Positions 14,628 through 39,592 of a stretch of DNA of 64,000 nt are shown in pieces. The position numbers were made by a program, and so were the translations under genes. A model generated the notes under the pieces. The model saw only the letters and a list, made by a program, of their open reading frames with translations, was not told the origin of the DNA and made no database searches. Numbering within the stretch: position 1 is the first letter of the stretch; each line of letters starts with the position of its first letter. Source of the stretch: an uncultured Spirochaetota bacterium (GTDB taxonomy: Bacteria > Spirochaetota > Spirochaetia > SZUA-6 > Fen-1364); NCBI GenBank assembly GCA_963745235.1, contig CAVUXE010000053.1, positions 1-64,000 on the forward strand. Direction: 5' to 3'.

Positions 14628-14712
14628 GCGGCGGCTATGACCGGCGGCGGCTTATGACCGGCAGCGGTTCATGACCGGCAGCGGTTCATGACCGGAGCGG
14701 TTCACGACCGGC
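14624..14712. repeat. Degenerate tandem repeat, ~17-bp unit ATGACCGGCAGCGGTTC, 5-6 copies
   Basis: Units start at 14624, 14637, 14654, 14671, 14688 and 14704. The copies at 14654 and 14671 are identical. Confidence 0.9.
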
Positions 14713-15952: not shown

Positions 15953-15955
15953 CAG

Positions 15956-21526: not shown

Positions 21527-21619
21527 ACCCCAATGTCAACGCAATTTTCTTCGCAGTGATTCTCCTGAGGCCCGAAAAAAATGGACAGGCGGTCGAATAC
21601 AGGATAAAATCAACGATCA

Positions 21620-24600
21620 ATGAGTGACAGCATGCGACCAATCCCTTTCCGGCAGCTTGTGTTGCACTGCCTGGGGGAATACCGGGCAAAGGCCTCCATT
21701 TTCGACATTTCCGCGCGCCATTTCTGGAAGCCGTCTGCCGTCCGAAGGGCCGTGGTGTTCTCCTCCGGGGCGGAGAACCCCATCGGGCCGGCCGCTGGAC
21801 CCCATACCCAGCTCGCGCAGAACATCATTGCGGCATGGCTTGCCCGGCGGGCGCTACTTCGAGCTGAAGACCGTTCAAAAGCTGGATTCCCTGACTATCG
21901 AGAAGCCCTGCATCGACGCCTCCGACGAAGGCTACAACGTCGAGTGGTCAACCGAGCTCAGCCTGGACCAGGCCTACGACGAGTACCTGAAGGCGTGGAT
22001 CGTCCTGCACCTGTTCGACACGCTGATCGGCGCCTCCCCAACGCCGCCGTCCTTTCTTTTCAACATGAGCGTGGGCTACGACCTGGAAGGGATCAGGACG
22101 GAAAAGATGGACCGGTTCATCAACCGTCTCATCGATTCCTCGAAGGAAAAGACGTTCCAGGACTACGTGGGGCAGCTCGCGGAGCTTGCGGATGATCCCT
22201 CGTTCCTGGCGGGGACGCCCTGGAGGGACCGGACCGCGCTGCTCAAGGCCCTGCCGTCGCGCATATCCCCGCGGATCTGCGCCTCGGTCACCCTCTCCAC
22301 CATGCATGGATGCCCTCCCGGTGAGATCGAGTCCATATGCGCCTACATGTTGACCGCCAAGAAGCTGGACACACTGGTCAAGCTCAACCCGACGCTGCTC
22401 GGCTACGACCGTGTCAGAGAGACCCTCTCTGGCCTCGGCTACGGGTACATCGAGCTGGACCCGCACGGGTTCCAGAAAGACCTGCAGTATTCGGCCGCGG
22501 TACCCATGCTCACGCGGCTGATGGACATGGCACGGCAGGGTGGAAAGCATTTCGGCGCAAAGCTTTCCAACACGCTTGCCGCGGGAAACGTGAGAGGAGT
22601 GCTCCCCGGCAAGGAGATGTACATGTCCGGACGCGCGCTCTATCCCCTGACCATGGGCCTGGCCGCCGAGCTTGCCGTCCAGTTCGACGGGTCGCTGCCC
22701 CTGTCATTCTCCGGTGGCGTGTCCGCCTGGAACGTCGCGGAAGTCCTGGGCGCCGGCATCCGGCCTCTTACCCTTGCGACGGACCTTCTGAAACCGGGCG
22801 GATACGCCCGGCTCAAGGAGATGGCCGAGATCACGGAGAACCACGCGGAGACGTGGAACGCCTCCCGGGTGGACCCGCAAAGAGCACGGGCCGCGGCCGA
22901 CTCCGCCCGGACCGTCGAGCATTTCCGAAAGGAGTACCGGGGCACGGACAAGGTCCACGTTGACGGCCCGTTGCCTCTCTTTGACTGCTTTGTCGCTCCG
23001 TGCCTCGTGACGTGTCCCATCCACCAGGACGTGCCGGAGTACATCCACCTTGCCGGGGAAGGGCGGTTCGAGGAGGCCTTCGACGCCATCTACGCGCGCA
23101 ACCCGCTGCCGTTCATCACCGGGTATCTCTGCGACCACCAATGCATGGGCAACTGCACGCGCATGGACTGGGAAGGCGCCGTGCGGATCAGGGAGATGAA
23201 GAGGATAGCGGCTGAGCGCGGGTATGCGGCGTTCCGCCGCAGCGGGACCCCGGGGGCCCGAAAGGCCGCGGCGCGCGGGATAAAGGCTGCCATTGTCGGG
23301 GCCGGGCCTGCCGGGCATGGCCGCTTCCTGCTTTCTTGCCCGGGAAGGTTTCGAGGTGCACGTCTTCGAGCGGGAACAGGATCCCGGCGGCGTGGTCAGA
23401 TACCTCCTGCCGGGTTTCCGCATGCCCGCGGATGCCGTTGAGAAGGACGTGTCGCTCCTCCGGGACCAGGGCGTCCAGTTCCACTTCGGAGAGCGGCAGA
23501 CGCCGGCAGTCCGTGACCTCCAGGCGCACGGCTACCGCTACGTGCTCGCAGGCATCGGCGCCCAGGGAGACAGGGACACGGGCATCCCCGGGGCACGCCC
23601 CGTCCTTGCATTCCTTCGCCAGTTCAAGGAGGACGCGACGCTGCTTTCACTCGGGACGTCCGTGGTGGTCATGGGAGCGGGTGACACCGCCATGGACGCC
23701 GCGCGGGCGGCCAAGCGCTGCATCGGGGTGAAAGAGGTCCGGGTGGTCTATCGAAGGACGGAGAAGGAGATGCCTGCCTCTCCGGAGGAGTACGAGTCCG
23801 CCCGTGAGGAGGGGATTCTTTTCCATTTCCTCAGGGCCCCCGAGGGCTGGTCGAAGGGGCCCGGGACAGAGCTGGTCTGCCGCGTCATGGAGCTTGGGAC
23901 GCCGGATGAATCAGGTCGTTCCCGCCCCGTTGCGACGAAAGAGACGGAGACGTTCCACGCCGACACGCTCATCACGGCGGTCGGGGTGGACATCGAGAAA
24001 GAAACCCTTTCCCGCATGGGTCTCTCCGACGCGGAAGCGGCCGTGGATCCGTCAACCCAGGAGACGAGGATTGCGGGTGTCTTCCTCATTGGAGATGCCG
24101 CCCAGGGGGCGGAGACCATCGTGAAGGCAATTGCCTCGGCGCAGAGGGCCGCGGATGCCATCAGCGTGAGGGAGGGTGGCAGCAGGTACAGGAACGGCAA
24201 GCTGCCGGCGGAGGACACGCTGGTGCTCCGCAGCCGGCGGGATCGGCTGATTCCCGCCTCAACCTCGTCCACGGATGACGAGCAAACCATGGACAAGGAG
24301 TCCCGGCGATGCCTGGGCTGCCGCGCCCTGTGCACCAAGTGCGTGGAGGTATGTCCCAACCGCGCCAATACGATGATCCGCGTGGCCAACGGTTTTCGCG
24401 ACGAGTGGCAGATCCTCCACCTGGACGCGTTGTGCAACGAATGCGGCAACTGCGCCACTTTCTGCCCGTGGGACGGCAAGCCGTACCGGGACAAGCTCAC
24501 TATCTTTGCAACCGCTGAGGAATTCCAAAAGAGCACCAACCCGGGGTTCTTCCTGAGCAGCGGCAAAGGGCTCCTGCGGCTCGGCCCCTCGGTTCGCGAG

Positions 24601-24706
24601 TTTGTCCTGGATGCGGCGGGGAACGTTCCCGGCGACATCGGCGACGAGTCGGTCGCGCGCTGTCATGCAGACCGTGGTGAAAACACACCCCTACCTGTTC
24701 GCCTGA
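21620..24706 (+). CDS. ygfK: YgfK-family Fe-S flavo-oxidoreductase (frameshifted)
   Basis: MSDSMRPIPF, GPAAGPHTQLAQNI, EGYNVEWSTEL, STMHGCPP, CVEVCPNRAN, CNECGNCATFCP. Confidence 0.92.
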
Positions 24707-24717
24707 GGAGGTGTCTC

Positions 24718-26040
24718 ATGATCGCGCTGAAGAACGCCACCCTTGTGCACCTGAACCCCGCCGAAGTGACCTCAGGGGTCGACGTGCTGATCGAGGGCAC
24801 GGAGATCGCCGCCGTGGGCAAGGGGGCGGCGGAAGGCGTGCAGGCGGAGCGGACCATCGACCTGGACGGCCGGGTCCTGATGCCCGGCCTGGTCTGCAGC
24901 CATGACCACTTCTATTCGGGCCTCTCACGGGGAATCATGGCCCGCATCGCCCCGAGCACGGATTTCGTCTCCACGCTGACAACCTCTGGTGGCGCCTGGA
25001 CAGGGCAATCGACAGGCAGATCCTGCGCGCCGGCGGCACTGTATGCGCGCTGGAGGCGGTCAAGGCCGGCTGCACGGCCGTCATAGACCACCATGCCTCC
25101 CCGTCATTCATCGAAGGATCGCTTGCGACGCTCAAGGAGTGCTTCGAAAAGGTCGGGCTGCGCGGGGTGCTGTGCTACGAGACCACGGACAGAAACGGCG
25201 CGCAGGGAATGGAGCAGGGGGTGCGGGAGAACAGGACCTTCGCCCGCAGCGTGGAGGAGGAGCGCAAGAGCAAGGGCAAGCAGCGCCTCGTGGAAGCCAT
25301 GATCGGCGGCCATGCCCCTTTTACCCTCGGAGACGATGCCCTCGCGAAGCTGGGAGATGTGGCCAGGGAAACCGGCAGGGGCTTCCACGTCCACGTGGCG
25401 GAGGATGGGTTCGATCCCTCCTACTCTCACAGGTTCCACGGGAAGGATGCGCTCAAGAGGCTGGATGGGTTCGGCCTGGTTTCGGAACGGTCCATCGTTG
25501 CCCATGGGCTGTACCTGACCCAGGAGGACCGCGAGCTCCTGAACGCCCGCAACGCGTTCCTGGCGCACAACTGCCGGTCGAACATGAACAACAGCGTGGG
25601 ATACAACGGCGAGCTGCCGCACGTGAAGAACGTTGCCCTGGGCACGGATGGCATCGGCTCCGACATGCTCCTGGAGGCTGAAGTTCGCGTATTTCCGCCA
25701 TCGGGACTCCGGGGGGAGCCTGGCGCCGGGGGCCTTCACGCGGTTCCTGCAGAATGGAAACGAGATCCTCCACAGGTCATTCGGGGAGAGCTTCGGCCGG
25801 GTGGAGAAAGGCTACAAGGCGGACCTCGTGATCCTGGACTACGACTCTCCCACGCCCATGGTGCGGGAAAACGTCGCCGGGCACGCCATTTTCGGCATGG
25901 GGAGCCGGGACGTCCACACCGTCATGGTGAACGGAAAGATCGTGATGGAAGCGCGCACTTTCCGCATGGACACCTCCGCGGCGTACGCAGCCGCCCGCGA
26001 GGCCGCCCAGCGCATGTGGCGCAACATGGACGCCCTGTAG
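24718..26040 (+). CDS. ssnA: SsnA-family amidohydrolase (frameshifted)
   Basis: MPGLVCSHDHFYSGL, CYETTDRNG, HVHVAE, RSNMNNSVGY, LGTDGIGSDM; follows ygfK with a GAGG RBS. Confidence 0.9.
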
Positions 26041-26042
26041 GA

Positions 26043-27127
26043 CTACAGCGTCGGCAGCGCCCCCTGCACCACGAACACCATTCCGAGGGTGAAGGCGGCA
26101 ACGGCGGCCTCGGCAGCCACTCCGACAACCAGCGGAGAGATCCCCGTGCGTGCCATGTCACGGAAGCTGGTACGCAGGCCCACCCCTATGAACGTCAGCT
26201 GGAATGCCCACTCGGAGAGGTTTTTCAGGCCCGGTTGTCTTCGCGGCCAGGAATGACCGTGCCTCCGCTCCGCGCGCCGCGGCGAAGAGGATGCTGAACA
26301 GCACGGAAAGACAGAGGAAGCCCAGGACGAACTTCGGGAACTTCTGCCAGAGGAAGAGGCCCTTGCGCGTCACTTCCTTCGCAAGCCCGCGCCGGGAATA
26401 ATAGATGGCGAAGCCCAGGATCACGAACCCCATGAGCGCGTTTCGGCACAGCTTGGCAAGCGTCGTGTAGGCAAGGGCGGCCTTCGAATAGATTGCTCCC
26501 GTGGCCACGGCTTCGGCGGTGTTGTCCACGGCGAGACCCGCCCACACCCCGAAGGCCTTGTCCGACATGCCCATGAGCCGGCCCAGGAGCGGATAGGCGA
26601 TGAGCGCAAGCGCGCCGAAAACAAGGATGACGGCGATGGCATACCCCGTTTCTTCCTTCCTGGCCTCGATGGAGCCCGCGGCGCCGATGATGGCGGACAC
26701 ACCGCAGATGCCGACGCCGACCGAGATGAGGCTCCCCAGCTTCTGGGGCAACTGGAAGAGCCGGGAAAACAGGCTGACAAACACGATGGAGAAGAGGATC
26801 TCCACCACGACAATGGCCAGGCCGATTCCGCCCAGCCGCGCGACGTCCGTGATGAGAAACCGGGCGCCCATCAGGACAATACCGACCTTCAGGAAAAACT
26901 CGTACGAGTTGATTCCCCTGGCAAAGAACACGCGGCAGGGGAACCAGGTTCCCGATCAGCATGCCTCCGATGATCGCGATGATGACGTTGGACGCCAGGG
27001 AGCGCACCCATGCCACCGCGATGACGGTCTGCAGCCAGTTGGAGAGGATCTTGCCCCCGATGGCGAGCGCAACGATGAGGGCAACGCCGGGCAGGTAGTC
27101 GAGAACAGCCTGGAAAAGTTTTTTCAT
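26043..27127 (-). CDS. YeiH-family putative sulfate exporter (frameshifted)
   Basis: LKVGIVLMG, GVGICGVSA, GVWAGLAV, KLCRNA, KFPKFVLGF. Confidence 0.85.
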
Positions 27128-27136
27128 CTCGCGCAC

Positions 27137-27244
27137 CTACCAGGGGAGATTCGGCAGCACGCCGGCCAGCACGAGCGCCGCGAGCGCAAAGGCGACAATC
27201 ACCGTCCACCAGTCCAGACCAATCCCGCTTCTCTTCTGTTCCAT
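27137..27244 (-). CDS. 35-aa single-TM small protein upstream of the YeiH gene
   Basis: Hand translation MEQKRSGIGLDWWTVIVAFALAALVLAGVLPNLPW*; GGGAGG RBS upstream; its stop abuts the YeiH gene. Confidence 0.72.
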   Translation of the reverse strand: MEQKRSGIGLDWWTVIVAFALAALVLAGVLPNLPW

Positions 27245-27399
27245 GTCCGTCCTCCCATCGCGTTGGATTCTCCGCGCCGCCTGGGGAGGAGTCAACGGAA
27301 ACCGTCGTTTCGTCCTGTTATTAACGAATTATTAACCGCGGCGAGGCAGATTCAGCGAGGGGGGGACGCGCCATCCGAATCTTTGAACGGAATATCCGG

Positions 27400-28050
27400 T
27401 CAGGGCTCCTGCTTCGGGGACGGGGTTCCCGTCCTTCGGCGCGCCCGCCAGTCCAGGCGCTCCTGCCTGCGGAAGCGCAGCCAGCGCTTGAGGCCCCGCT
27501 CAATGAGCATCATCACGTCGTCAATCAGGTCCTCCGAGGACTGATCCCGCGCGCCCAGGGGAATTGTTGTGAAGATCGCCATGAGCATCCGTTTCGGATT
27601 GCGAAAAAGACTGGTTCGGAAGACTCCCTTGCGGGTGCCTTCCGCCAGGATCTCTTCGATCAGCGACTCGATGCGGGAGAAGAGGGTGTTGCCCTGGGCG
27701 GCGCGGGACTCCAATCCGGGATAGGTGAATCTTTTTTCTCTTCCATAGATACCGCGGAGGATGTCGTTGTTGCGAAGGCTCAGCGTGGCATAGCGGAACA
27801 GGGCTTTCAGTCGAAAGAGCGGAGATCTGAAGCTGTTGACGCGCTTCTCCACCTCTTTCACCCCCCGCTGCTCAATGGCGTCAAGGATCGCGGAGTAGAA
27901 CTCTTCCTTGCTGTCGAAATAGGTGTAGAAGCTTCCCATCCCGAGCCCCGCGGCGTTCGTGATGTCCTGGATGCTGACGTCACGGTAGCCGTTGCGGGCA
28001 AAAAGCCTTTCGCCGACCTTGAGGAGGGTGTCCTTGCGGTTGTATTCCAC
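27400..28050 (-). CDS. TetR family transcriptional regulator
   Basis: LFARNGYRDVSIQDITNAAGLGMGSFYTYFDSKEE; start codon uncertain. Confidence 0.9.
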   Translation of the reverse strand: MEYNRKDTLLKVGERLFARNGYRDVSIQDITNAAGLGMGSFYTYFDSKEEFYSAILDAIEQRGVKEVEKRVNSFRSPLFRLKALFRYATLSLRNNDILRGIYGREKRFTYPGLESRAAQGNTLFSRIESLIEEILAEGTRKGVFRTSLFRNPKRMLMAIFTTIPLGARDQSSEDLIDDVMMLIERGLKRWLRFRRQERLDWRARRRTGTPSPKQEP

Positions 28051-28268
28051 CCGTTTCTCCCTGGAAAAGGACCGGATCTGGCGGTCAATTATCCGGTTTT
28101 CTTCTCTCCTGTCCCCTCGGACCGCGCCGTTTTTCGCTGAAAAGGCCGCTCCCCGGCGCGTTTTCGCCGCTCGGCATGCCGTTGCCGTTGACATTGCGCG
28201 GCGCGAAAAACAGTCTGTACCGTGACAGTATGAAAGCAGAAGAGAAAGCGCATGCCAAGGGGGCCCAC

Positions 28269-29568
28269 ATGGAGCGCCACTACCATCTGGCCTGTCCAGT
28301 CTGCGGCAGACAATTCGAGGATTCTCCCAGCGACTTCCTTCTGTCCTGTCCCGAGCCGCACGCCCCGGCGCTCCTGAGGGCGGTGTATCGGCAGAAGCGG
28401 CTCGTTGTGCACCCCGAGCACACGGGAGTCTTCCGTTTCTCCGAGTGGCTCCCCATCAGGCGGCGGCTGCAGGGAGCCCCCGGGCCGGTGGTTTTTCGAA
28501 GCAGGAACCTTGGTCCTCACCTTGGCCTGGAAAACCTCTTCATCATCTTCAATGGGTACTGGCCTGAGAAGGGCGCGCTCATGGAGACCTGCACGTTCAA
28601 GGAGCTGGAAGCGCAGGCGGTGTGCGGGCGCGTGGTTCCCGAGTGGGAGTCCTGCCTGGTGGTCTCTTCGGCAGGAAACACGGCGCGCGCTTTTCTCCAG
28701 GCGTGCTCGCGCTACAGCGTGCCGGCTCTCGTCGTGGTCCCCGGCAATTCGCTTCCGCTCCTGTGGAGCACCCGGCGGCCGGGACCCTCCGTGCGCCTTG
28801 CCGTCCTGGAGGGGGATGCAGACTACAGCGATGCAATTGCCCTGGGCAACGGTATCGCGAACCTGGAGGGTTACTACTCCGAAGGCGGGGCAAAGAACGC
28901 CGCACGTCGTGACGGGATGGGGACCGCCATGCTGAGCATGGTGGAGGAAGCAGGTGAGATTCCCCACCACTACTTCCAGGCGGTTGGCAGCGGCACGGGG
29001 GCCATCGCAGCATGGGAGATGAACCAGCGCCTCGTCGAGGACGGGCGGTTCGGGTCACGGAAAACCCGGCTTCACCTGGCGCAGAACGCGCCCTTTCACC
29101 CCGATGGTGGACGCATGGGAAGCGGGTGCCAGGACGCTCACGGGAACGGATGACGCCGGCGCCCGCACGAGGGTCCGCTCCATCCGCGCCCAGGTCCTTG
29201 CCAACAGGAACCCTCCGTACGCAATTGCGGGCGGGCTCCACGATGCGCTTCGCGACACGGGCGGATTCATGTACCGCGTGACAAACGACGAGTCCGCGAG
29301 GGCGGGGCGGCTGTTCGTGGAGCAGGAGAGGTGCGACATTGACGCGGCGGCGGAGGTGGCGGTTGCCTCCCTCCTGCAGGCGCGGGCCGCGGGCAGACTC
29401 GGGTCAGGGGACGTGGTTGCGCTGAACATTACCGGCGGCGGAAGAAGCAAGCTGGAGGCAGCCCGGGCAATCGAGCCCCTTGCTCCTGACGTCCGCTTCT
29501 CCCTGGCGGACCTGGGGCACCAGGAACCGGAGTCGCGCATCAGGGAGTTGATGGAGGCGGCGGGGTGA
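28269..29568 (+). CDS. Cysteate synthase (frameshift near 29100)
   Basis: FNGYWPEKGA, TCTFKELEA, SAGNTARAF, EGGAKNAARRDGMGT, YFQAVGSGTG, LNITGGG. Confidence 0.85.
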
Positions 29569-30806
29569 GCGACCTTTTCGACAAGTGCCGAACTGACTCC
29601 GGCTACTTCGGCGCCTTCCGCGCGCGCCGGGACATGTATTTCACGCAGCCTGTCCTGGAGGGCGCTCCCGGACCGCACATGATGTTCCAGGGCAAGAACG
29701 TGATCATGTGGGCCATCAACAACTACCTCGGGATTGCCGCCCGGGAAGACGTGAAGCAGGCCGGCGTGGAAGCGATGAAGGAGTTCGGCCCCGGCTCTCC
29801 CATGGGCTCCCGTCTTCTCACCGGCAATACGAAGCACCACATCCAGCTGGAACGCGCCCTGGCGGATTTCCTCGGCAAGCCGGCGGCAATCCTCTTCAAC
29901 TATGGCTATCTCGGCGTTCTCGGCACCATCTCTGCCCTCATCGGCAAGGATGACGTGGTGGTCATAGATTCCCTTTCCCATGCATCCATGATAGATGCCA
30001 CCATCCTCGCCTCCGCGGGGAGGCGTTTTCGACCCTTCAAGCACAACAACATGGAGAACCTGGAGTTCCACCTCCGCGGCGCGAACAGGGATCGCAAAGG
30101 AGGGATCCTTGTCGTGACGGAGGGAGTGTTCGGCATGAAGGGCAACCTGGCCCGCCTCCCCGAGATCTGTGACCTCAAGGAGAAATACAACGCGCGCCTG
30201 TTCGTTGATGACGCGCATGCCTTCGGGGTGATGGGCCCGAGCGGACAGGGGACCGGCGAGCACTTCGGAGTGCAGGACAGGATCGATCTGTACTTCGGCA
30301 CATTCGCAAAGGCGTTCGCCGCCATTGGCGGGGTGACGGCGGGTGAAGAGGACGTGATCGAATACATCCGCTACAACGCGCGCACCAACGTCTTTGCCAA
30401 GGCGCTCCCGCTTTCGTACGTGAAGACCGTTGAGAAGGCGCTCGCGGTCGTCAAGGACCCCGAGCCGCGGGAGAAGATGTGGCACATCGCACGGATGCTC
30501 CAGCAGGGTCTTGCGGACCTGGGCTACGACATCGGGGACACCGAGTCTCCCATAACGCCCGTGTATGTGCCGTCGGGAGATGAGAAATCCGCCATGGGCA
30601 TGATCTCCATGCTGCGGGAGGACTACGGCATCTTCGTCTCCGGTGTGACATTCCCCGTTGTGCCGCCCGGTGTGGTACTCTTCCGCATGATCCCGACGGC
30701 CGCGCACAGCGAGGAGGACGTCGAGAAGACCCTTGATGCGTTTCGAAAAATGCGGGACAGGCTCTCCCTGGATCTCTCGCAGAAGCCCTCTCTCGTCAAC
30801 AGGTAG
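29565..30806 (+). CDS. PLP alpha-oxoamine synthase (serine palmitoyltransferase / cysteate C-acyltransferase-like)
   Basis: NNYLG, HASMID, TEGVFGMKG, VDDAHAFG, GTFAKA; its start overlaps the cysteate synthase stop. Confidence 0.85.
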   Translation: MSDLFDKCRTDSGYFGAFRARRDMYFTQPVLEGAPGPHMMFQGKNVIMWAINNYLGIAAREDVKQAGVEAMKEFGPGSPMGSRLLTGNTKHHIQLERALADFLGKPAAILFNYGYLGVLGTISALIGKDDVVVIDSLSHASMIDATILASAGRRFRPFKHNNMENLEFHLRGANRDRKGGILVVTEGVFGMKGNLARLPEICDLKEKYNARLFVDDAHAFGVMGPSGQGTGEHFGVQDRIDLYFGTFAKAFAAIGGVTAGEEDVIEYIRYNARTNVFAKALPLSYVKTVEKALAVVKDPEPREKMWHIARMLQQGLADLGYDIGDTESPITPVYVPSGDEKSAMGMISMLREDYGIFVSGVTFPVVPPGVVLFRMIPTAAHSEEDVEKTLDAFRKMRDRLSLDLSQKPSLVNR

Positions 30807-30815
30807 CCCGGGGCC

Positions 30816-31613
30816 ATGACAGCCCGGGCTCTCGTCACCGGAGCCTCCCGCGGGATAGGCCGCGCAATTGCCGCGGCCCTCGCGAGCCACGGCTTCGAGG
30901 TGCTCGGCACTGCCCGCAATCCCTCCTCCGTGGTCGGGGACCAGAAGGTCCCCGGGGTGCAGTACATCGCGCTGGACCTGGAAGATGAAGAAAGCATCGA
31001 CTCCGTCATCGCGCGCGCCGGTGCACTCGATGTCCTGATCAACAATGCCGGAGGAAGCCAGATCGGACCCGTGGAGGAGGTCCCCATTGAGGCGGTCCGC
31101 CGTCTCTTCCAGCGGAATCTCTTCGGCTCCCTGCGCCTCACGCAGGGCGTCCTTCCCGGCATGCGCGCACGGCGAAGCGGCCGGATCATCTTCGTCAGCT
31201 CGTACGCCGGTGTATCCCCGGTCCCCTTCCTGTCGGCGTATGCGTCGACAAAGGCCGCTCTGACAGCGCTGGCCCGGGGTCTTCGTCAGGAAGTCATGGC
31301 TGACGGAGTATGGGTTTCCGTCATTGCGCCGTTCGACATCCGCACAACCATTCCCCTTGACCTGCAATTCGGGGACGACTCACCGTACAAGGCCGCGCTT
31401 CTTCGGGTAAAGGAAGTAAGGGACCGGTCTCTCAGGGAAGCCCCTGGTCCCTCACTGGTTGCTCGAAAGGTGGAGCGTGTCCTGGCCGCAAGGAGCCCGC
31501 GCGCATTCTATCCCGTGGGCAGAAACGCGCGCCTCATGGGCTTCCTCTTGAAGCATCTGCCGGACCGGACTGCCGAAAGAATCGTCCGCAAGCTCTTCCG
31601 CGTCGACGCCTGA
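30816..31613 (+). CDS. SDR oxidoreductase (possible 3-keto-capnine/3-ketosphinganine reductase)
   Basis: TGASRGIG, NNAG, YASTK; third gene of the operon. Confidence 0.8.
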   Translation: MTARALVTGASRGIGRAIAAALASHGFEVLGTARNPSSVVGDQKVPGVQYIALDLEDEESIDSVIARAGALDVLINNAGGSQIGPVEEVPIEAVRRLFQRNLFGSLRLTQGVLPGMRARRSGRIIFVSSYAGVSPVPFLSAYASTKAALTALARGLRQEVMADGVWVSVIAPFDIRTTIPLDLQFGDDSPYKAALLRVKEVRDRSLREAPGPSLVARKVERVLAARSPRAFYPVGRNARLMGFLLKHLPDRTAERIVRKLFRVDA

Positions 31614-31626
31614 GCGCTCCTGACCC

Positions 31627-32764
31627 CTATTCCACGACGATCTTGCCAAGCATGTGTCTCATGACCTTCGCCGCAGAAGACGCTGCAGAAGAAGGCATGC
31701 TCCCCCGCTGCGTTCAGGCTCACGGGGATTGCAACGGGACGTCCCGGAACTATCATCGCATCGATTCCCAGGTCCGGGCATGCGAAGCCATGCGTCGCGT
31801 CAGCTGAAGAAATCTCCAGCGTGACTGGCTCTCCCTTCTTCACGCGGATGACATCCGGCTCAAACCCACCCAGGTGGGCGCTGACCTTGATGGTCTCTGC
31901 GGCGCTGGGGACAACGTCAATCGAGTATTCGGTGACGGAGACCTTGTGCGTGGGAAGGTCGATGCGCACGGTCCGAAACCCGAGCCCCTGGTAGGGGTGC
32001 TCGGGGTCCCAGGGCACCGGTCCGGGCTTTGCCACCGAGCCCGGCGCAGGCAGCGGGAACATCATTCCCTTTGCTGCGTACTGGGTGAAAGAGCCCTCGG
32101 TATCTTCACGCTCCTGGTGGATGTGGCCATAGAAAAGGGTCACATTCGAAAACGGCTTCAGCAGCGCCAGGGCTTTGTCTCCGTCCTTGGTTCTCCAGTC
32201 CCACTGCGAGTAGACCTCCAGGAGCGGCCGGTGCGCAAAGACGATGACCTGCGAGCTCCTGTCGAAACCCTTGAGGGTCTGCTCCAGCCATGAAAGTTGG
32301 ACATCCCCCAGGCTGCTGCCAGCGGTCACGTTGTCCAGCGCGATGAAATGGACGCCCTTCAGGTCAAACGCGTAGTACCTCTTGCCGAAGTTCTTCTCGT
32401 ACGCCGCGGCCGCGTCCAGGCCGGCGTCGTGCTCCCCGGGCAGGAACCTGATGTTCTGCACCTTGAGTGCCCTGATGATGTCCTTGAACTCCGTCATGCG
32501 CTGCTGCCGGACCGCGGCGTCATTCGTCGTGTGAGTCTCGTCTCCCGTGAAGACGATGAAGTCCGGCGTCGCGGGCAGCCCGTTCACCTGGGCAATCGCC
32601 TTTTTCAAAGTCCCCGCGTAGTCCGGGTTGACCTTCGGATTGTCGAAGCCCCAATGAGTATCCGAGAGCTGCACGAAGAATATCTGGTCGCTGAAGGCGG
32701 CCGGGGCGCCCGCCAGCGCAGCGACGACGATAACACAAGCAAGAACACAAAGCCTGAGCTTCAT
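31627..32764 (-). CDS. Secreted metallophosphoesterase fused to a CuA-type cupredoxin domain
   Basis: Signal peptide; SDTH, TGD, PGEHD, GHIH; C-terminal HGF...CSVFCGEGH..M with a frameshift in the last codons. Confidence 0.75.
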
Positions 32765-32832
32765 GAGAACCTCCATGCTTTCTCCTACACCGAAGGTCGA
32801 GAACCGGATTGGGGTTCCGGGAGGCCGGTGGA

Positions 32833-33387
32833 TCAAGCTTCTGAGATCGCAGGTCGGAGGAAGGCCATCCCCACTTTTTCCTTCGCGGTTTTGCACTCTT
32901 GCGTCGGTATTGGGCTCGTGGAAGGGAGGCGGGCGATGAGGACACTGTGCCCCTCCAATTCCGGAGGCCTCCATTCGATTTCCGATCCGATCGGAGGGTC
33001 CTTTCTCATTTGCCCGTGGCCGAAATGCTGAATGAACGACGAAGCGGCTCTGCCGCCATTGAGGGCGATCCGTTCGATCGATGGGTGATCAAGAACATAG
33101 TCGATCAGAAGATTCGGCCGCCCATTTCTGATGTCCTTGTCAAGGCTCCCTGCGCGTTCACATGAAGCCAGCACGTCCCAGACTGCGATCCCGTGTCGTT
33201 CGAGCAGAGCCAGCCTGGCGCGATACTCCTCGGGAAACGGTGCGTCCAGGACGATGCGGAGAACCTCCCAGAAGTGGTTTCTCGCGTTGCCGTAATACTG
33301 CCCCTTTTCGAGTGACATTGCCGAAGGGAAGGAACCAAGAATGAGGAGGCGGGGCCGCGCAGAGCCGACAGGCGGGAGACCATTCAT
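32833..33387 (-). CDS. DNA-deoxyinosine glycosylase (UDG superfamily)
   Basis: LILGSFPS, QYYGNARNHFW, WDVLASCERAGSLD, LPSTSP. Confidence 0.85.
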   Translation of the reverse strand: MNGLPPVGSARPRLLILGSFPSAMSLEKGQYYGNARNHFWEVLRIVLDAPFPEEYRARLALLERHGIAVWDVLASCERAGSLDKDIRNGRPNLLIDYVLDHPSIERIALNGGRAASSFIQHFGHGQMRKDPPIGSEIEWRPPELEGHSVLIARLPSTSPIPTQECKTAKEKVGMAFLRPAISEA

Positions 33388-33541
33388 AAGACATATGCGT
33401 TCCAATATCCGGAACTTGTCAAGCTTGGGGTGGGGGGCGCGGCTTACCACAGCGCTTGTCAACAAGCTTCGCAAGAAGAGGCCGCGTCGCTTCTAAGCGA
33501 CCATCATTTTTTTCTTTACGACGAAGAGGAATGTGCATAGC

Positions 33542-33760
33542 ACGGCTCATTCCCACCTGAACGCGGCCGTGCTGGACAGCTCCTGGGAGCAGACAGAATG
33601 ACAGGCCGTTCCTGCTGATTCCCTACGCGTACGAAGGCACGGGTCACCAGTTTGAGCCCGGGTATCTTGTCCGCCTTGCAAATCGGAGGGCGCTGGTCCT
33701 CGAGATGAAGGGTGAGGAAAACGATCAGGACAGGGCACCCGCATCCGCTGCCGGGGATAT
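33542..33760 (+). pseudogene. Remnant of the C-terminal nuclease region of a type III restriction (Res) enzyme
   Basis: Hand translation SHLNAAVLDSSWEQ / NDRPFLLIPYAYEGTGHQFEPGYLVRLANRRALVLEMKGEENDQD; no start, internal deletion. Confidence 0.6.
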
Positions 33761-33901
33761 TGAAAAGAATGGCAACTGGGTCCTGAAGCGCATCGCGCTG
33801 GTGTGGTGTAAGTAGCGCTTCTTTACAACGCGCGAACTTGGAGAGCACCTGGATGCAGCTATCGGCGGAAAACGGCAAGCATCCGAGGGGCGAAAAAACA
33901 C

Positions 33902-33930
33902 TTGCAGTAATAACTAAACAAATGTATAGT
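33902..33930 (+). promoter_or_regulatory. Promoter with an overlapping palindromic operator
   Basis: TTGCAG, 17 bp, TATAGT; near-perfect palindrome ACTAAACA-AA-TGTATAGT (33913-33930); ATG 7 nt downstream. Confidence 0.65.
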
Positions 33931-33937
33931 ACCTGCC

Positions 33938-35273
33938 ATGGAGAACCTCGAGGAACTCGGTCAGGAGATCGCCAGCTTGTCCGCCCACCTGGATGCAGCC
34001 GCCCATCGTCTGCTGGAATGCATCCGACGCTTCGATGAGGCCTGCGGCTGGCACGAGCAGGGCGCGGTGTCCTGCGCGCACTGGCTGGCGTGGCGCCTCG
34101 GATGGGACCTGGCCACCGCCCGCGAGAAGGTACGGGTGGCACGCGCGCTGGGTAGGCTGCCCGCCATCAACGAATCGTTGCGCACCGCCAGGCTATCCTA
34201 CGCCAAGGTTCGCGCGCTCACTCGGGTGGCGACCCCCGAGAACGAAGCGAAGCTGCTGGAGATGGCGCTTATCGCAACCGGGGCGCAGCTTGAGCGGCTG
34301 TGCCGAGGCTATCGAGGGGTACTGGACTCTGAAAGGACGCCGGCGCCGGAGGAGCGTTCGGTACGCCAGCGGCTGCTGGCGGGGGGGATGGTCAAGCTGG
34401 AGTTGGTGCTTGAGCCCGACGAGGCGGATTTGATCCTGCGCGCCATCGAGCGCGCCCGGGAGGTGCACGCCCGCAGGGCAGAGCCGCTGGAGACAGAGGC
34501 TCCCGGAGCGCCTGCCGACCTGCGTGCCTCCGGTACCTGCGGCGCGGGGGGAGGCGGAGGCAGTTGAAGCCGCCGGCGTTTCCGCGGAAACGTGCTGGCC
34601 CTCGCGGGCTGACGGCGCGGTGAAGCTCGCCGAGTCGTTCCTGGCAGGCAATCCCGTGACGGGAACCGGCGGGGAGCGCTTCCAGGTCATGGTTCACCTG
34701 GATCAGGAGGTGCTTGGGCCAGACAGTGCTTGGGCGGCCACCCTGGAGGACGGAACGCGCATTTCCGCGGAAACGTTGCGCCGGGTGGCCTGCGATTGCG
34801 GCCTCGTGGCCACAGGTGGCGATGGGGAGGCACTGAACATCGGTCGCCGCGCCCGCAGTATTCCGCCCGCCATCCGTCGCGCCCTGATGCTGCGTGACCG
34901 CGGCTGCGCCTTTCCGGGGTGCACCCACACGGCCTTCCTTCACGGGCACCACATCCGGCACTGGCTGCACGGCGGGGAAACCAGCCTGGTCAATGTTGTC
35001 CTGCTGTGCAGCCTCCATCATCACCTGGTTCACGAAGGCGGGTGGACCGTAACCTCCGCAACCGACGGCGCTTTTGCCTTTCACTCGCCTGCCGGCAAGC
35101 TGCTCGCGCCCGAGCCGCCGCGCGAGCTGGTTGATGACACGCTGGACTGGCTGCGCGAGTGGGCTGATGAGCACGAGCTGGACCTTGGCCCTGACGTCAA
35201 CGTGCCGCAGTGGGATGGGAAGACACCGGACTACAACGCTGCGGTGGGATGGCTGCTGGCGGCTGGCCAGTAG
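33938..35273 (+). CDS. DUF222 domain + HNH endonuclease (13E12-repeat-like); frameshift near 34550
   Basis: CAHWLAWR, LSYAKVRALTRVATPENE, RRVACD, RDRGCAFPGC, HHIRHWLHGG, LLCSLHHHLVHEGG. Confidence 0.88.
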
Positions 35274-35319
35274 CCGCTGGCGCCCGCGGCGATTGTCACG
35301 CTATTTCTGTGACATTACA

Positions 35320-38300
35320 CTAGAGGTGCGGCCCGGTGAGCAGGAGCTTCAGCCTGTTGAGCTGGTTCACTTCGCTGGCGCCCGGGTCATAGTCTATGGG
35401 GGCGATGGTCACCTCCGGGTGACGCCTGCGGAGCTCGCGGATCATGCCCTTGCCGGTCACGTGGTTGGGCAGGCACGCGAAGGGCTGGATGCACGCAATG
35501 GCATTCACGCCGCTTCCGATGAGCTCCACCATTTCAGCGGTGAGGAACCATCCTTCGCCCGTCATGTTCCCCAGCTGGACGATCCCGTCCACTCCCTCAG
35601 CGAGCCGCCGGAAGCCCTGAGGAGGATCGAACCTCTTTGACGCCGCAAGCTCACGCTTCATGCGCACACGGAACAGCTCGATCAGGGCGATCGCGAGCCT
35701 GGCCAGCAGCGCGCCGCGGAGGCTGCCGGCCAGCTTCCTGCGGCGGAACAGGTTCCCCGAGGAGGAGTACAGAAGGAAGTCCACCAGGTCAGGGACGACG
35801 GCTTCCGCCCCTTCTGATTCGATCACCCGAACTATCTCATTATTGGCCGTGGGGTGGAACTTGACCAGGATCTCCCCGACAACTCCGACCCTGAGCTTGC
35901 TCTCGTTTCTGACAGGCAGCTCATCGAAGGCCTTGACCATGAGCGATATGGTGCGGTGGAAGGTCCGCAGGCGCGGACGAGCGAGCGCCTGCGCGCAGGT
36001 CTCGCTCCAGAGCGCGCAGAGGCGGTCAGCCGCTCCCGGTTCGACCTCGTACGGACGCACCCGGTAGAGCATCCTCATGAGAAGGTCGCCGTACACGAGC
36101 GCCATCATCGCCCGGGCCAGAAAGGGCAAGGTCAGGCGGAAACCGGGATTCTTCTCCAGGCCAAGCGCGTTGACGGATATGACCGGCACGTGGCCCATCC
36201 CGGCGTCCGCCAGCGCCTTGCGAATGAAGGCGATGTAGTTGGTGGCCCTGCAGCCGCCGCCTGTCTGCGAGATAAGGAGCGCGGTGCGCGACGGGTCGTA
36301 GCGTCCCGAGCGGAGAGCCGACATCATCTGGCCGACCACGAGGATGGAGGGATAGCAGGCGTCGTTGTTGACGTAGGTGAGTCCCACGTCCACGGCCTTT
36401 CTGTCCACCTCGGGAAGGATCTCCAGGTTGAAGCCGGAGAGCCGAAAGGCGCGCTCCAGGATGCGGAAGTGGATTGGCGACATCTGCGGGGCCAGGATCG
36501 TGTGGGTCTGCTTCATGCCGGCAGTGAAAACCGGACGCGACTCCCCCGACCGCGCGGGACGGTGGCCGAGGTCCGGGCCCCGCGCATCCAGCGCCGCCTT
36601 GAGCGAGCGCAGGCGGATGCGCGCCGCTCCGAGGTTCGACTGCTCATCGATCTTCAGCAGCGCGGATGCCCTGCCATGCCGGGACAGTATCTCCTGCACC
36701 TGGTCGGTGGTCACGGCATCCAGGCCGCACCCGAAGGAGGTGAGCTGCACGAGGGCCAGGTCTCTCCGATCCGCGGCAAAGGAGGCCGCCGCGTACAGGC
36801 GGGTATGGTAGACCCACTGGTCTATCACCCGAAGGGGACGCTGGATCCGGCCCAGGTGGGAGACCGAGTCCTCCGTGAGGACAGCCATGCCGAGGGAAAC
36901 GATGAGCTCGGGAACGCCGTGATGGATCTCCGGGTCCAGGTGATAGGGTCTGCCGGCAAGGATCACGCCGCGAAGGCGCCGCTCTTCGATCTCTTTCAGG
37001 ACCTCTTCCCCCTTTGCCCTGACTTCCCCCTTGAAGCGGGCCTGCTCTGCAAAGGCGGCTTCCACGGCGCCGTCGATATCAGTTCGCGAAATGCCTGCCC
37101 ATGCGAGCTCCTCCGCGAGTCGCTCCTTCAAGCGCCTGGGGTGGTGGAGGGGAAGAAACGGATTTGCGTAGCGGACACCGCGGTGGCCGGGTGCGGCGCT
37201 CCTCAGCCCTTCCACGTTGTTGAGGATCACCTCGGGGTAGGAGGTCACGATGGGGCAGTTGAAATGGTTGGCCGCGTCCTCTGTCTTCTCGCGGGCTGTA
37301 CGGCACGCAGGGATAGAAAATGAAATTGAGGCCATCCCGCACCAGACGGGTGATATGCCCGTGCACCAGCTTCCCCGGATAGCAGACGGACTCGGACGGG
37401 ATGGTCTCCATGCCCGCCTCGTATACCGACTTGCTGGAGCGCGGCGACAGGCGGACGGAGAACCCCAGGTGCGTAAAGAACGTGAACCAGAACGGGTAGT
37501 CTTCGTAGATGTTCAGGACCCGGGGGATGCCCACCACGCCGCGAGGGGCATCACCGGGGGCCAGGGGCCGATAGCGGAACAGGCGGGCAAGCTTCCACGC
37601 AAAGAGGTTGGGGATCTGCGCGGTTGCCGGGCCTCCTGTGGCAGCCCGGTCACCGCCGAGACGGGCTCCCCGCTCGCAGCGATTCCCCGAAACGTATGAT
37701 CGGGTGTCGGAGAACCGCGTGATCGTGAGCATGCAGGCGTTCTGGCACGACCTGCACCTTTCCATGGACACGCTGGTGCGCAGGGCGCATACCTCCTGAA
37801 GGCCGAGCATTCCGCTGCGCTCAACGCCGGAGGCCCTGCGCCGCGCAAGGAGGGCGGCCCCGAATGCTCCCATGAGACCGGCCACGTCGGGCCGGACCGC
37901 GGTGCGACCCGCGACGAGCTCGAATGCGCGCAGGACGGCGTCGTTCAGGAAAGTGCCTCCCTGGACGACCACCTTCTCCCCGAGCTCATCCGGGCTCTTC
38001 AGGCGGATCACTTTCTGCAGCGCATTGCGGATCACGGAGTAGGAAAGGCCGGCCGAGATGTCTCCGACCCCCGCGCCTTCCTTCTGCGCCTGCTTGACCC
38101 GTGAGTTCATGAACACCGTGCAGCGCGATCCCAGGTCCACCGGGGCCGCGGCGCGCAGCGCTTCGCAGCCGAACCGCTCCACCGGCATTCCCAGGGACTG
38201 GGCGAAGGTTTCCAGGAACGAGCCGCAGCCGGACGAGCACGCCTCGTTCAACAGTACGGTGGAGATGGTCCCGTCGTTGACGCGGAGGAACTTCATGTCC

Positions 38301-39592
38301 TGCCCGCCGATGTCCAGGATGGATTGGACCCCGGGGAGGAACTCCGATGCGGCCGCCTGGTGCGCGACGGTCTCCACCTCTCCATCATCGAGACGGAACG
38401 CCTCCCTGACCAGGGCTTCCCCGTACCCCGTGGAACACGCGCGGGAGACCCAGGCGCCAGGGGGAATGGCGCGAAGCACCTCGGTGACCATTGCTGTGGC
38501 GACTCCCAGAGGATCCCCGCCGTTGCCCCGGTACGCTGACCACGCAATGGCCCCCTTGGCATCGATCACGACCGCCTTGGTGGTCGTCGAGCCTGCATCC
38601 AGCCCGAAGAACAGAGGTCCGCGCGCCCCCGCAATCTCCGTCCTCAGCGCGCGGGCTTTCCCGTGCCGGTCACGGAACGCCGCAAGCTCGCTCCCGTCCC
38701 GGAACAGCGGGCGCATGCGCTGCACCTCGGGCTCCCTCTCACCGCACAGTCCGCGCACACGGTCCCGAAGCTCCATGAGGCCAACGACGTTCTCTTTCTC
38801 CGAGGCAAGCGCGGCCCCCATGGCCACGAAGAGCTCGGCGCGAGCGGGGGTTCGAACGTGCTCGGGAGCCAGGCCGAGAGTCTTCACGAAGAGCTTCCTC
38901 GTTTCGGGAAGGAAATGCAGCGGACCGCCGAGGAAGGCGACCCGGCCGCGGATGGGCTTCCCGCAGGCGAGCCCCGAGATCGTCTGGTTCACCACCGCCT
39001 GCAGCACGCTGGCCGCGATGTCCTCCCGGCGCGCGCCCTCGTTGATGAGGGGTTGCACGTCGGACTTTGCGAACACTCCACAACGGGCGGCAATGGGGTA
39101 GATGGTCGTATGGGCCCGGGCAAGCTCGTTGAGCCCCGCGGCGTCGGTCTGCAGGAGGCTCGCCATCTGGTCGATGAACGCCCCGGTGCCCCCCGCGCAC
39201 GTGCCATTCATGCGCTGCTCCAGGCCGCCCGTGAAATACGTGATCTTGGCGTCCTCTCCGCCCAGCTCGATCGCGACATCCGTGTCCGGCAGAAATCGGG
39301 AGACCGCGCGCGTGCCGGCGATCACCTCCTGCACAAAGGGGAGATCGAGCCATCGGGAGACCGAGAGGCCGCCGGAGCCGGTGATTGCCACGCTGAGTGA
39401 CTGCCCCGGGGCCGCCCGGCAAAGCTCATCATGGGCAGCCTCCACGATCTCGATCAACGCGCCCCGGATGTCGGCGTGGTGACGCTCGTAGGTGCTGAAG
39501 ACAAGCGCGTCACTGGCGTCCAGGACCGCAAGCTTGACCGTCGTTGAGCCGATGTCGATGCCGGCGTGAAGCGTCCCGTTGGCCGTGCTCAC
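35320..39592 (-). CDS. CoA-substrate-specific enzyme activase (2 BadF/BcrA ATPase domains + DUF2229); frameshift near 37290
   Basis: [63 protein letters not shown]. Confidence 0.9.

Follow-up and report, generated by a model that had tools for sequence, protein, structure and literature searches.

Sulfonolipids have effects on gliding, on host immunity and on the development of choanoflagellates, and to our knowledge reviews still give them to the Bacteroidota alone. Archaeal cysteate synthase has its role in coenzyme M synthesis.

The archaeal type of cysteate synthase is used by Alistipes and Odoribacter, and a 2023 review describes it and CapA of Capnocytophaga as only distantly related (PMC10191378). 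The two characterised cysteate acyltransferases are SulA of Alistipes finegoldii (7U7H) and CapB/CFAT of Capnocytophaga ochracea (28EH). The position of Lys281 in SulA, which is alanine in Spt, has been proposed to tell sulfonolipid from sphingolipid condensing enzymes (Radka et al., PMC9304779, in the part of the text available). For CapB, the available part of PMC13692747 reports that exchanges of pocket residues did not yield use of serine; substrate choice in the clade is not understood. The known ketoreductases (KCRs) are several, mutually divergent and with little shared sequence, and according to the accessible part of PMC11211663 they are not encoded adjacent to cfat or Cys in the genomes examined there. 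The C16 keto product of CFAT has been reported at m/z 364 in positive mode (PMC13692747, PMC11211663). A search of the literature that covered few subscription journals found no published report of a sulfonolipid pathway in Spirochaetota, and the word stem "Spirochaet" is absent from the text of PMC13692747 and PMC11525784.

The locus analyzed here lies in a window of 64,000 nucleotides, by which we mean the whole stretch of DNA under study, from an indel-rich metagenome-assembled genome (MAG) that is 85.7% complete with 5.9% estimated contamination. An initial annotation had seen in it a tightly coupled operon of three genes from 28269 to 31613. The coordinates hold, the genes lie on the plus strand, and their coupling is tight, the first two overlapping by 4 bases and the last two being 9 bases apart. 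The genes and their upstream neighbors are as follows.

26158-27136, minus strand: membrane protein of the YeiH family (putative sulfate exporters), with a frameshift as assembled; PF03601, 170.7 bits
27400-28194, minus strand: TetR-family regulator, divergent; PF00440, 48.6 bits
28269-29568, plus strand: cysteate synthase, first gene of three; TIGR03844 match
28269-29102, plus strand: cysteate synthase, part 1; TIGR03844 positions 1-265, 329.5 bits (cut-off 324.9)
29104-29568, plus strand: cysteate synthase, part 2, continuing in frame +1 as assembled; TIGR03844 positions 266-396, 116 bits
29565-30806, plus strand: alpha-oxoamine synthase of the CFAT/SulA/CapB clade by its sequence; 413 amino acids, PF00155, 152 bits
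30816-31613, plus strand: classical SDR, candidate 3-ketocapnine reductase; 265 amino acids, PF00106, 154 bits

The GTG start of the oxoamine synthase gene shares the letters GTGA with the stop of the cysteate synthase gene, and the SDR gene lies directly 3' of the oxoamine synthase gene, 9 bases after its end. No N-acyltransferase is found among the genes of the operon. A scan from 27300 to 32000 revealed nothing above chance, neither for promoters (2 promoter-like sites, 0.7 expected) nor for terminators (2 terminator-like sites, 3.8 expected). In two peat metatranscriptome (RNA) runs only 5-7% of the sampled words were present. We propose, with a probability of about three in four, that the three genes are a TetR-flanked operon by which a free-living spirochaete forms a sulfonated long-chain base of the capnine type.

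The cysteate synthase and its frameshift

The first gene had been taken for a cysteate synthase working with the chemistry of CapA. The identity of the enzyme stands, since part 1 alone passes the equivalog cut-off of TIGR03844, with the same match in the whole-genome search; of the 14 control genomes, Methanosarcina acetivorans is the only one above this cut-off. What needs correction is the type, which is the archaeal one of TIGR03844, described as only distant kin of Capnocytophaga CapA (PMC10191378); besides, the gene is split in the window at 29091-29093, which the initial annotation did not mention. With the archaeal-type enzyme of M. acetivorans the window synthase shares the TFKELE lysine motif (present as TCTFKELE, its lysine invariant in 8/8 relatives); it differs in being predicted to serve a lipid-type operon and not coenzyme M synthesis. 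To the copies from Bacteroidota it is about 47-53% identical. Intact copies in relatives span model positions 1-396 and score 454-524 bits on TIGR03844, those from the same genus 454-485 bits. In a quick tree of cysteate synthases, which gave long-branch warnings, the spirochaete enzymes fall in at least three places, and no history was drawn from it.

In the window the gene occupies two frames (28269-29153 and 29104-29568), and the break comes from one extra C in the run of C at 29091-29093. In four public runs from four studies the contig covering this site omits, in 4/4 cases, one letter at 29091, by which the frame is restored; these contigs have a depth of 3-5, and one of the runs may be the source sample of the window itself. 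The frame-corrected synthase has 433 residues and reads at the junction like three intact copies from the same genus, and the two parts are contiguous in a single frame in all ten relatives' loci. Compared with intact relatives the window has about 8 further frame changes between 21.6 and 38.8 kb, most of which are corrected in the same run contigs, too. Because the window holds many such indels and because the extra C is absent from the contigs of all four runs, the frameshift is most likely an artefact of the assembly.

The oxoamine synthase and the reductase

Among solved structures the two best matches of the oxoamine synthase, full-length and of the same fold and family, are the two characterised cysteate acyltransferases, CapB (28eh) with 400 bits and SulA (7u7h) with 382 bits. 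The next-best solved relative, with 262 bits, is bacterial Spt (for example that of Sphingobacterium multivorum, 3A2B), with which the enzyme shares the alpha-oxoamine synthase fold and chemistry; Kbl reaches at most 225 bits and BioF at most 174. These scores bear out the earlier remark that the enzyme resembles the Bacteroidota clade more than BioF, and the two motifs pointed out at the time, YFGTFAK and YNARTNVFAKALP, are both found in its translation. A phylogeny against CapB/SulA, Spt, BioF and Kbl, which had been suggested as a check, also groups it with CapB/SulA: in IQ-TREE trees of 64 and 60 rows the clade that holds it has support 100/98-99 and is separate from those labelled Spt-like, Kbl and BioF by NCBIfam models, and a FastTree tree of 167 rows agrees with this placement. 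Judged by scores and trees, the oxoamine synthase belongs to the CFAT/SulA/CapB clade. Within it the window enzyme stands in a separate, spirochaete-dominated subclade (27 rows, support 100/98) next to a Bacteroidota subclade, whose member P0126, an anchor of the clade, reaches 541 bits with SulA and 519 bits with CapB. To the Bacteroidota homologues compared, the window enzyme is just 46-50% identical, and solved relatives share about half of their residues with it. The equivalog cut-offs of NCBIfam are all missed (NF047600 for Spt, 322 of 640; NF047599, 292 of 500; NF005394 for Kbl, 321 of 460; TIGR00858 for BioF, 309 of 426).

The active site points in the same direction. Lysine 279 (within FAKALP) aligns with Lys281 of SulA and Lys280 of CapB, and a lysine is found at this position in 20/20 spirochaete rows and 37/42 rows of the clade, as compared with 0/125 other oxoamine synthases. 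Another four residues that are specific to the clade speak for CFAT. From the ten residues located at most 4 Å from PLP-cysteate in CapB, as listed in the available part of PMC13692747, eight are identical in the window enzyme (N52, G114, Y115, H139, H218, T246, K249, K279) and the other two differ conservatively (F113Y, C141S). Two residues of the second protomer also differ from CapB, S82 and V276. In the comparison with both SulA and CapB, the PLP lysine, Asn52, His139, Asp216, His219, Thr247 and the diagnostic Lys280/281 are conserved, whereas Tyr replaces Phe113, Ser replaces Cys141, Ser replaces Ala82 and Val replaces Met277. Spt deviates from the window enzyme by Ala/Thr at the SulA-281 position, Ser for Ala249, Met for Phe245 and, at position 113, Thr/Ser in place of an aromatic residue.

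As with CapC of Ornithobacterium rhinotracheale and the KCRs of A. finegoldii and Chryseobacterium gleum, the SDR protein belongs to the classical SDRs, and its cofactor and Ser-Tyr-Lys motifs are intact (TGASRGIG at 8, NNAG at 76, SSYAG at 128, YASTK at 142). On NCBIfam it matches best the model of a generic oxidoreductase (204 of 310 bits; KdsR, 129 of 400), and in the PDB a generic putative dehydrogenase (120 bits). An SDR homologue directly follows the oxoamine synthase gene in 4/10 relatives' loci and is absent beside the pair in the other 6/10; in a wider set of 20 loci in which an oxoamine synthase gene adjoins the synthase gene, it follows directly in 7. Unlike the genes of the known KCRs, that of the window reductase sits in an operon where the pathway needs a ketoreductase, a placement found only in part of the genus. 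By this position the protein is a candidate 3-ketocapnine reductase; its sequence gives no tie to CapC or the KCRs.

Host, distribution and neighboring genes

The genome encodes FlaA (PF04620, 249 bits), which was found in 0/14 control genomes, and the nearest proteins and loci carry Spirochaetia or Spirochaetota titles, so that the earlier placement of the host outside the Bacteroidota, as Spirochaetia-like, holds. On this evidence the host is an uncultured spirochaete. The organism of the window is present in runs from peat, soil, wetland and sediment.

In a sample of 200 other Spirochaetota genomes (201 searched with G000) the cysteate synthase was found in 19 and a CFAT-like enzyme in 17. 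Each of these 17 genomes also has the synthase, and none of the 181 synthase-free genomes has a CFAT-like enzyme; the co-occurring genomes are kin and not independent, 12 of the 17 coming from one family. The gene pair is conserved in no fewer than five coded families within the phylum sample and in four more within the window's order, and in these spirochaete families it comes with no further biosynthetic genes. Synthase and oxoamine synthase genes are adjacent in all ten relatives' loci. When 80 loci were examined, the adjacent arrangement was seen in 16/20 with a Spirochaet- title and in 0/43 with a Bacteroidota title; in 43/43 of the latter no oxoamine synthase gene lies within 6 kb of the synthase gene, whereas in the window it follows directly. 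Two loci with the same pair carry non-spirochaete titles, yet are nested inside the spirochaete clade. A two-domain protein of the glyoxalase/dioxygenase fold, and not a reductase, joins the pair in 11 loci from other lineages; a search of the window genome with a single protein query did not find this partner. The closest non-spirochaete relatives include FAAL-ACP-oxoamine-synthase fusions, which are typical of natural-product loading modules. The synthase also occurs without a CFAT-like enzyme, namely in a Symploca and a Moduliflexus genome, whose best oxoamine synthases reach 34-36% identity. By its sequence the pathway is of a kind already known but met here in a phylum new for it, and none of the Bacteroidota loci examined shows this operon layout.

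A TetR homologue is found near the synthase gene in all ten relatives' loci. The relatives' proteins align only from about residue 45-57 onward, and the true start of the TetR protein is probably downstream of the listed ATG. The gene product is the probable regulator of the operon; a search for operator palindromes between 27980 and 28290 gave just two weak inverted repeats. The YeiH-family gene, which adjoins the TetR gene in 4/10 relatives' loci, changes frame in the window near 26.23 and 26.93 kb. An intact relative of its product scores 95.8 bits on TIGR00698, below the cut-off of 232.6, and therefore any link of this neighbor to the pathway is only a guess.

For the supply of sulfite, the 85.7%-complete genome gave no match to Sat (TIGR00339), to PAPS_reduct (PF01507, which covers CysD and CysH) or to the NIR_SIR sulfite reductase (PF01077). 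In a MAG of this completeness and richness in indels, missing matches to the sulfite route do not show absence. If sulfate assimilation is missing, as it seems, the organism would have to scavenge sulfite or a sulfonate.

Proposed pathway, alternatives and meaning

In the proposed pathway cysteate synthase would form L-cysteate from O-phospho-L-serine and sulfite. The cysteate would then bind as PLP-cysteate aldimine on Lys249 of the CFAT-type oxoamine synthase and condense with fatty acyl-ACP or acyl-CoA, yielding CO2 and a 3-keto-2-amino-alkane-1-sulfonate of the 3-ketocapnine type. Using NAD(P)H, the SDR protein may reduce the ketone of this product, which would give the capnine-type base. 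The data show the families to which the first two enzymes belong, the active-site signature of the second, the gene order with its conservation, the co-occurrence of these two enzymes and the spirochaetal host; we infer the substrates, the part played by the SDR protein, the chain length, any N-acylation that may follow on the way to a full sulfonolipid, the membrane location and the regulation by the TetR protein. The capnine-type interpretation of the initial annotation could have failed on the sequence at two points, a Bacteroidota host or a clustering of the condensing enzyme with BioF/Kbl, and both came out in its favor.

The first two steps may proceed as proposed and still lead to a sulfonated small molecule, a signal or secondary metabolite rather than a membrane sulfonolipid, whose acyl chain might be short or unusual and which enzymes encoded elsewhere would finish. 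A TetR gene beside an operon is common for conditional pathways, and the glyoxalase/dioxygenase-fold protein that replaces the reductase in other lineages, the FAAL-ACP fusions among the closest non-spirochaete relatives and the operon without N-acyltransferase fit such a product. We nevertheless regard it as unlikely, since every characterised member of the clade makes long-chain sulfonolipid bases, as far as the available parts of PMC13692747 and PMC9304779 describe them, and since the pair is kept across so many families with no further biosynthetic genes. The N-acylating enzyme is likewise not met in the accessible part of the Bacteroidota literature, and its absence from the operon therefore says little. 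That the oxoamine synthase is instead of the Spt or the BioF/Kbl type, and that the cysteate goes to osmolyte, taurine or coenzyme-M-like metabolism, has a low probability. No NCBIfam model names the enzyme, it scores much alike on those for Spt, Kbl and BioF (309-325 bits), cysteate synthases do occur without a CFAT-like enzyme, as in Symploca and Moduliflexus, substrate choice in the clade is not understood, and the exchanges in CapB did not lead to use of serine. However, its scores fall far short of all three equivalog cut-offs, clade placement and the five diagnostic residues are those of CFAT, and the co-occurrence with the synthase is 17/17. In a spirochaete with both kinds of enzyme the Spt-like paralogue (L133) has alanine at the Lys281 position.

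Decay of the locus, with a real frameshift and a dead pathway in this strain, would explain the broken synthase gene of the window as assembled and could be seen in line with two other assemblies of the genus in which the gene is also broken, G014 (in three pieces) and G018 (by a TGA). It is very improbable in view of the four runs without the extra base, the contigs of which also mend frame breaks in neighboring housekeeping genes, a pattern of homopolymer errors and not of selective decay; besides, the synthase pieces are 84-87% identical to their closest intact relatives and contain neither stop nor gap. A contig of Bacteroidota origin binned wrongly is hardly conceivable, even in a MAG with estimated contamination and with two non-spirochaete-titled loci nested in the spirochaete clade as a reminder that binning or titles can mislead. 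The operon and its neighbors (YeiH, TetR, phosphoesterase, YgfK, SsnA) are syntenic in genomes of the same genus, including assemblies with contigs of 0.5-1.6 Mb, the G+C content is even across the window (59-67%), and adjacency of the pair sets the Spirochaet-titled loci apart from the Bacteroidota-titled ones.

There is a wider proposition, toward which we lean slightly: capnine-type sulfonolipids would not be a trait of the Bacteroidota but would be made by a considerable share of free-living Spirochaetota (roughly a tenth of the sampled species, in the families named above) via an old cysteate acyltransferase subfamily of their own. In the genus of the window the whole base-forming pathway, with a dedicated ketoreductase, would be encoded in one TetR-flanked operon, and sulfite or sulfonate would be scavenged. 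Were this true, the chemotaxonomic meaning of sulfonolipids in lipidomes of peat, soil and sediment would change, and the literature, in which the Bacteroidota genes examined are scattered and the reductases redundant, would gain a compact and easily expressed three-gene operon. It would also raise the questions from where an organism without visible sulfate reduction obtains its sulfite and which role an anionic sulfonate lipid may have in the spirochaete envelope.

The operon and the clade of its condensing enzyme

Three genes on the forward strand form the tight operon that the initial annotation had described:

28269..29568, + strand: gene 1, cysteate synthase (NCBIfam TIGR03844), in two frames
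29565..30806, + strand: gene 2, alpha-oxoamine synthase-type PLP enzyme (class I/II), 413 amino acids
30816..31613, + strand: gene 3, classical SDR, 265 amino acids

Genes 1 and 2 share the bases GTGA, where stop and start overlap, and gene 3 follows gene 2 after a gap of 9 bases. A divergent TetR-family gene lies upstream of gene 1 and a convergent metallophosphoesterase-cupredoxin gene downstream of the operon.

Gene 2 stays below the cut-off of every NCBIfam equivalog model (Spt 322/640, Kbl 321/460, BioF 309/426). In a comparison with the whole PDB, the two characterised cysteate acyltransferases ranked first and second: CapB/CFAT (cysteate fatty-acyltransferase) from Capnocytophaga ochracea with 400 bits (28eh) and SulA from Alistipes finegoldii with 382 bits (7u7h). 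Serine palmitoyltransferases reached 262 bits at best, and no Kbl or BioF entry exceeded 225 or 174 bits, respectively. Trees were calculated from 133 of the best 150 matches among 1.84 billion protein representatives (17 with a match shorter than 330 residues were left out), 33 sequences from fetched loci (three loci were omitted, two as duplicates and one for its broken gene) and the window enzyme, with FastTree for 167 rows and in two IQ-TREE runs for 64 and 60 rows. The Spt-like, Kbl and BioF clades, labelled via the NCBIfam scores of 30 representatives, all fall outside the clade of the window enzyme (support 100/98-99 in IQ-TREE, FastTree concordant), which bears out the proposed grouping with the CapB/SulA type. 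Within this CFAT clade 8 rows form a Bacteroidota subclade (100/100), to which the representative P0126 (541 bits on SulA, 519 on CapB) and the best homologues of three Bacteroidota-titled genomes belong. The window enzyme is found in the neighbouring subclade of 27 rows (100/98), composed mostly of spirochaete loci together with the representative P0123, two loci titled WOR-3, a Dehalococcoidales- and a Gammaproteobacteria-titled contig, both nested among spirochaetes, and one FAAL-ACP-oxoamine-synthase fusion source-named Rhodothermaceae.

Three representatives inside the CFAT clade (P0121, P0122 and P0125, 1049-1127 amino acids) are fusions in which a fatty-acyl-AMP ligase and a carrier protein are joined to an oxoamine synthase of the CFAT clade, one cluster being source-named Rhodothermaceae; they would be self-loading sulfonolipid condensing enzymes.

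A passage in Radka et al. (2022, PMC9304779) proposes Lys281 of SulA, where Spt has an alanine, as a residue by which the condensing enzymes of sulfonolipid and sphingolipid synthesis may be distinguished. According to the PDB-match alignment and the 167-row alignment, the window enzyme retains N52, G114, Y115, H139, H218, T246, the PLP lysine K249 and K279, the equivalent of Lys280/281; Phe113 is replaced by Tyr and Cys141 by Ser. The lysine at the 281 position is present in 20 of 20 spirochaete rows and in 37 of the 42 CFAT-clade rows, and in none of the 125 other oxoamine synthases of the 167-row alignment. Ala249, Phe245, Glu187 and an aromatic residue at 113 also set the CFAT clade apart from the other rows.

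Another spirochaete genome, G066, encodes both an Spt-like enzyme with FTASLP and Ala at the 281 position (L133, G066:C19) and a CFAT-like oxoamine synthase with FAKSLP (L129, G066:C20). The idea, put forward in a review, that synthesis of sphingolipids excludes that of sulfonolipids may not hold outside the Bacteroidota.

Frame break of gene 1 and identity of the host

The cysteate synthase named in the initial annotation stands, since TIGR03844 is matched over its cut-off, but the break of the gene into two frames had gone unmentioned. The piece 28269..29153 covers model positions 1-265 with 329.5 bits (cut-off 324.9) and the piece 29104..29568 positions 266-396 with 116 bits. Both parts are contiguous in a single frame in all 10 loci fetched from relatives. 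Comparison with the intact genes of the three closest relatives revealed further frame changes near 21.8, 23.3, 24.96, 25.68, 26.23, 26.93 and 37.27 kb, which hit YgfK-, SsnA- and YeiH-like genes and a CoA-enzyme-activase gene. Four DNA runs, each from a different peat or soil study, were aligned as Logan contigs to 21500..39000 (contig depth 3-5, one run possibly being the source sample of the window). One letter at 29091 is absent from the single covering contig of each of the four runs, and the same contigs also correct 21843, 23313, 24654, 24979, 25676, 26228, 31656 and others. Removal of one C from CCC at 29091..29093 yields a gene 1 frame of 433 residues, whose junction reads like that of three intact same-genus copies. 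Because of the single frame in relatives, the other frame breaks, the agreement of all four runs and the restored frame, the break is ascribed to an error of the assembly, an indel-rich MAG of 5.85 Mb in 104 contigs with 85.7% completeness and 5.9% contamination.

Single-base indels are common in 21500..39000, with breaks near 21843, 23313, 24654, 24979, 25676, 26228, 26930, 29091, 31656, 33732 and 37270, and ORF calls anywhere in this genome are to be read with them in mind. The stretch 33764..35515 has a contig depth 5-20 times that of its surroundings in all four aligned runs and many variant letters, and is therefore a repeated or widely shared element; its ORFs 33938..34567 and 34524..35273 have no Pfam match at E <= 1e-8, and the latter ends, by eye, in an HNH-like His/Cys-rich stretch. 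A threonine-synthase-like PLP enzyme at 14705..15955 on the minus strand (PF00291, 249 bits) was rejected as a second cysteate synthase, since its score with the TIGR03844 model is only 44 bits.

A host outside the Bacteroidota, as initially supposed, is supported by several findings. The genome encodes FlaA (PF04620, 249 bits), the sheath protein of periplasmic flagella, for which none of 14 control genomes gave a match. Those of the closest homologues of gene 2 (98-67% identical) that are named carry the label Spirochaetia or Spirochaetes bacterium, and the closest named gene 1 loci (84-100% identical to a same-genus copy), ranked among the best 80 of at least 586, are titled Spirochaetia, Spirochaetota or Spirochaetaceae bacterium. 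G+C is even along the window, and the operon neighbourhood is syntenic in same-genus genomes. Near-identical DNA occurs in runs with the labels peat, soil, wetland and freshwater sediment; 8 runs each contain half or more of the sampled words, and 10 studies are represented.

Linkage, distribution and sulfite supply

Species-representative genomes were scanned with an alignment of eight spirochaete synthases, and the best 80 of at least 586 loci were kept.

Cysteate synthase loci with an oxoamine synthase within the locus flank, grouped by record title (best 80 of at least 586)
Spirochaet-titled: 16 of 20
Bacteroidota: 0 of 43
Cyanobacteria: 0 of 8
WOR-3: 2 of 2
Dehalococcoidales: 1 of 1
Gammaproteobacteria: 1 of 1
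Other: 0 of 5
Total: 20 of 80

Three of the four Spirochaet-titled loci lacking the neighbour are truncated by a contig end. In three Bacteroidota genomes a CFAT-like gene (47-50% identical) is located elsewhere; the Symploca and Moduliflexus genomes contain no CFAT-like gene, their best oxoamine synthase being 34-36% identical.

The cysteate synthases of cyanobacterial and Moduliflexus MAGs (L042, L044-L046, L048, L051-L053, L067 and L073; genomes G044, Symploca-titled, and G045, Moduliflexus-titled) are 50-58% identical to the spirochaete ones and have no oxoamine synthase nearby; cysteate must serve another purpose there. Beside the synthase-CFAT pair, a two-domain glyoxalase/dioxygenase-fold protein of about 355 amino acids was seen in 11 of 100 loci examined, all with an adjacent pair (e.g., L017:3988-5064, L043:8592-9659, L095:9377-10453 and 8 more) and with spirochaete, WOR-3, Dehalococcoidales and Gammaproteobacteria titles among them; one protein query did not find it in the window's genome.

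Among 200 evenly sampled Spirochaetota genomes, each at least 80% complete, a synthase over the cut-off was present in 19 and a CFAT-like enzyme (E <= 1e-120) in 17, all among these 19; none of the 181 genomes without the synthase had one. The two synthase-only genomes are fragmented and 88-89% complete. The count overstates independence, because 12 of the 17 genomes come from a single coded family; the two genes are not linked in this family. Of the closer relatives, 19 of 40 have the synthase over the cut-off (20 of 41 including the window's genome).

Sulfate adenylyltransferase, the PAPS_reduct family, which includes CysD and CysH, and a NIR_SIR sulfite reductase had no match in the 85.7%-complete MAG, so that no route was found to the sulfite that gene 1 would need; genes for the sulfite route may be hidden by incompleteness and frameshifts. 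In 4 of 10 loci the syntenic neighbours include a YeiH-family membrane protein, named putative sulfate export transporter by NCBI; its score lies below the family cut-off. Immediately upstream of the block of YeiH, TetR and operon, at 21624..26040, are YgfK, a putative selenate reductase subunit (1256 bits for an intact relative), and SsnA, a putative selenium metabolism aminohydrolase (554 bits), both frameshifted here.

The candidate reductase and the known pathway

Gene 3 contains the motifs TGASRGIG, NNAG, SSYAG and YASTK. It was not identified by NCBIfam, where a generic oxidoreductase model is best (204/310 bits; KdsR 129/400), nor by the PDB (best match a putative dehydrogenase, 120 bits). 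A homologue comes after gene 2 in 4 of the 10 loci from relatives, each of these 4 belonging to the same genus, and in 7 of the 20 adjacent-pair loci among the best 80 of at least 586. A section of PMC11211663 describes the 3-ketocapnine reductases of Chryseobacterium and Alistipes as several, divergent and not adjoining the other genes of the pathway, whereas the SDR of the window begins 9 bases after gene 2. By its position and the chemistry, gene 3 is a putative 3-ketocapnine reductase.

The predicted chemistry of the operon is that of the known capnine pathway. Alistipes and Odoribacter have an archaeal-type synthase instead of a CapA homologue (PMC10191378), and the window synthase is of the same type. 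Of 9633 prioritised genomes in a gut survey, 9632 were placed in the Bacteroidota (PMC11525784), and we found no printed report of a sulfonolipid pathway in Spirochaetota in the literature searched. New would be the phylum, a distinct CFAT subfamily and the arrangement of the operon, which in this genus includes a reductase of its own. The capnine-type operon outside the Bacteroidota that the initial annotation proposed is a real feature, and its interpretation is supported by the clade, the Lys281 equivalent, the spirochaete host and the co-occurrence of the two genes. The operon would represent a pathway of known type in a lineage new for it.
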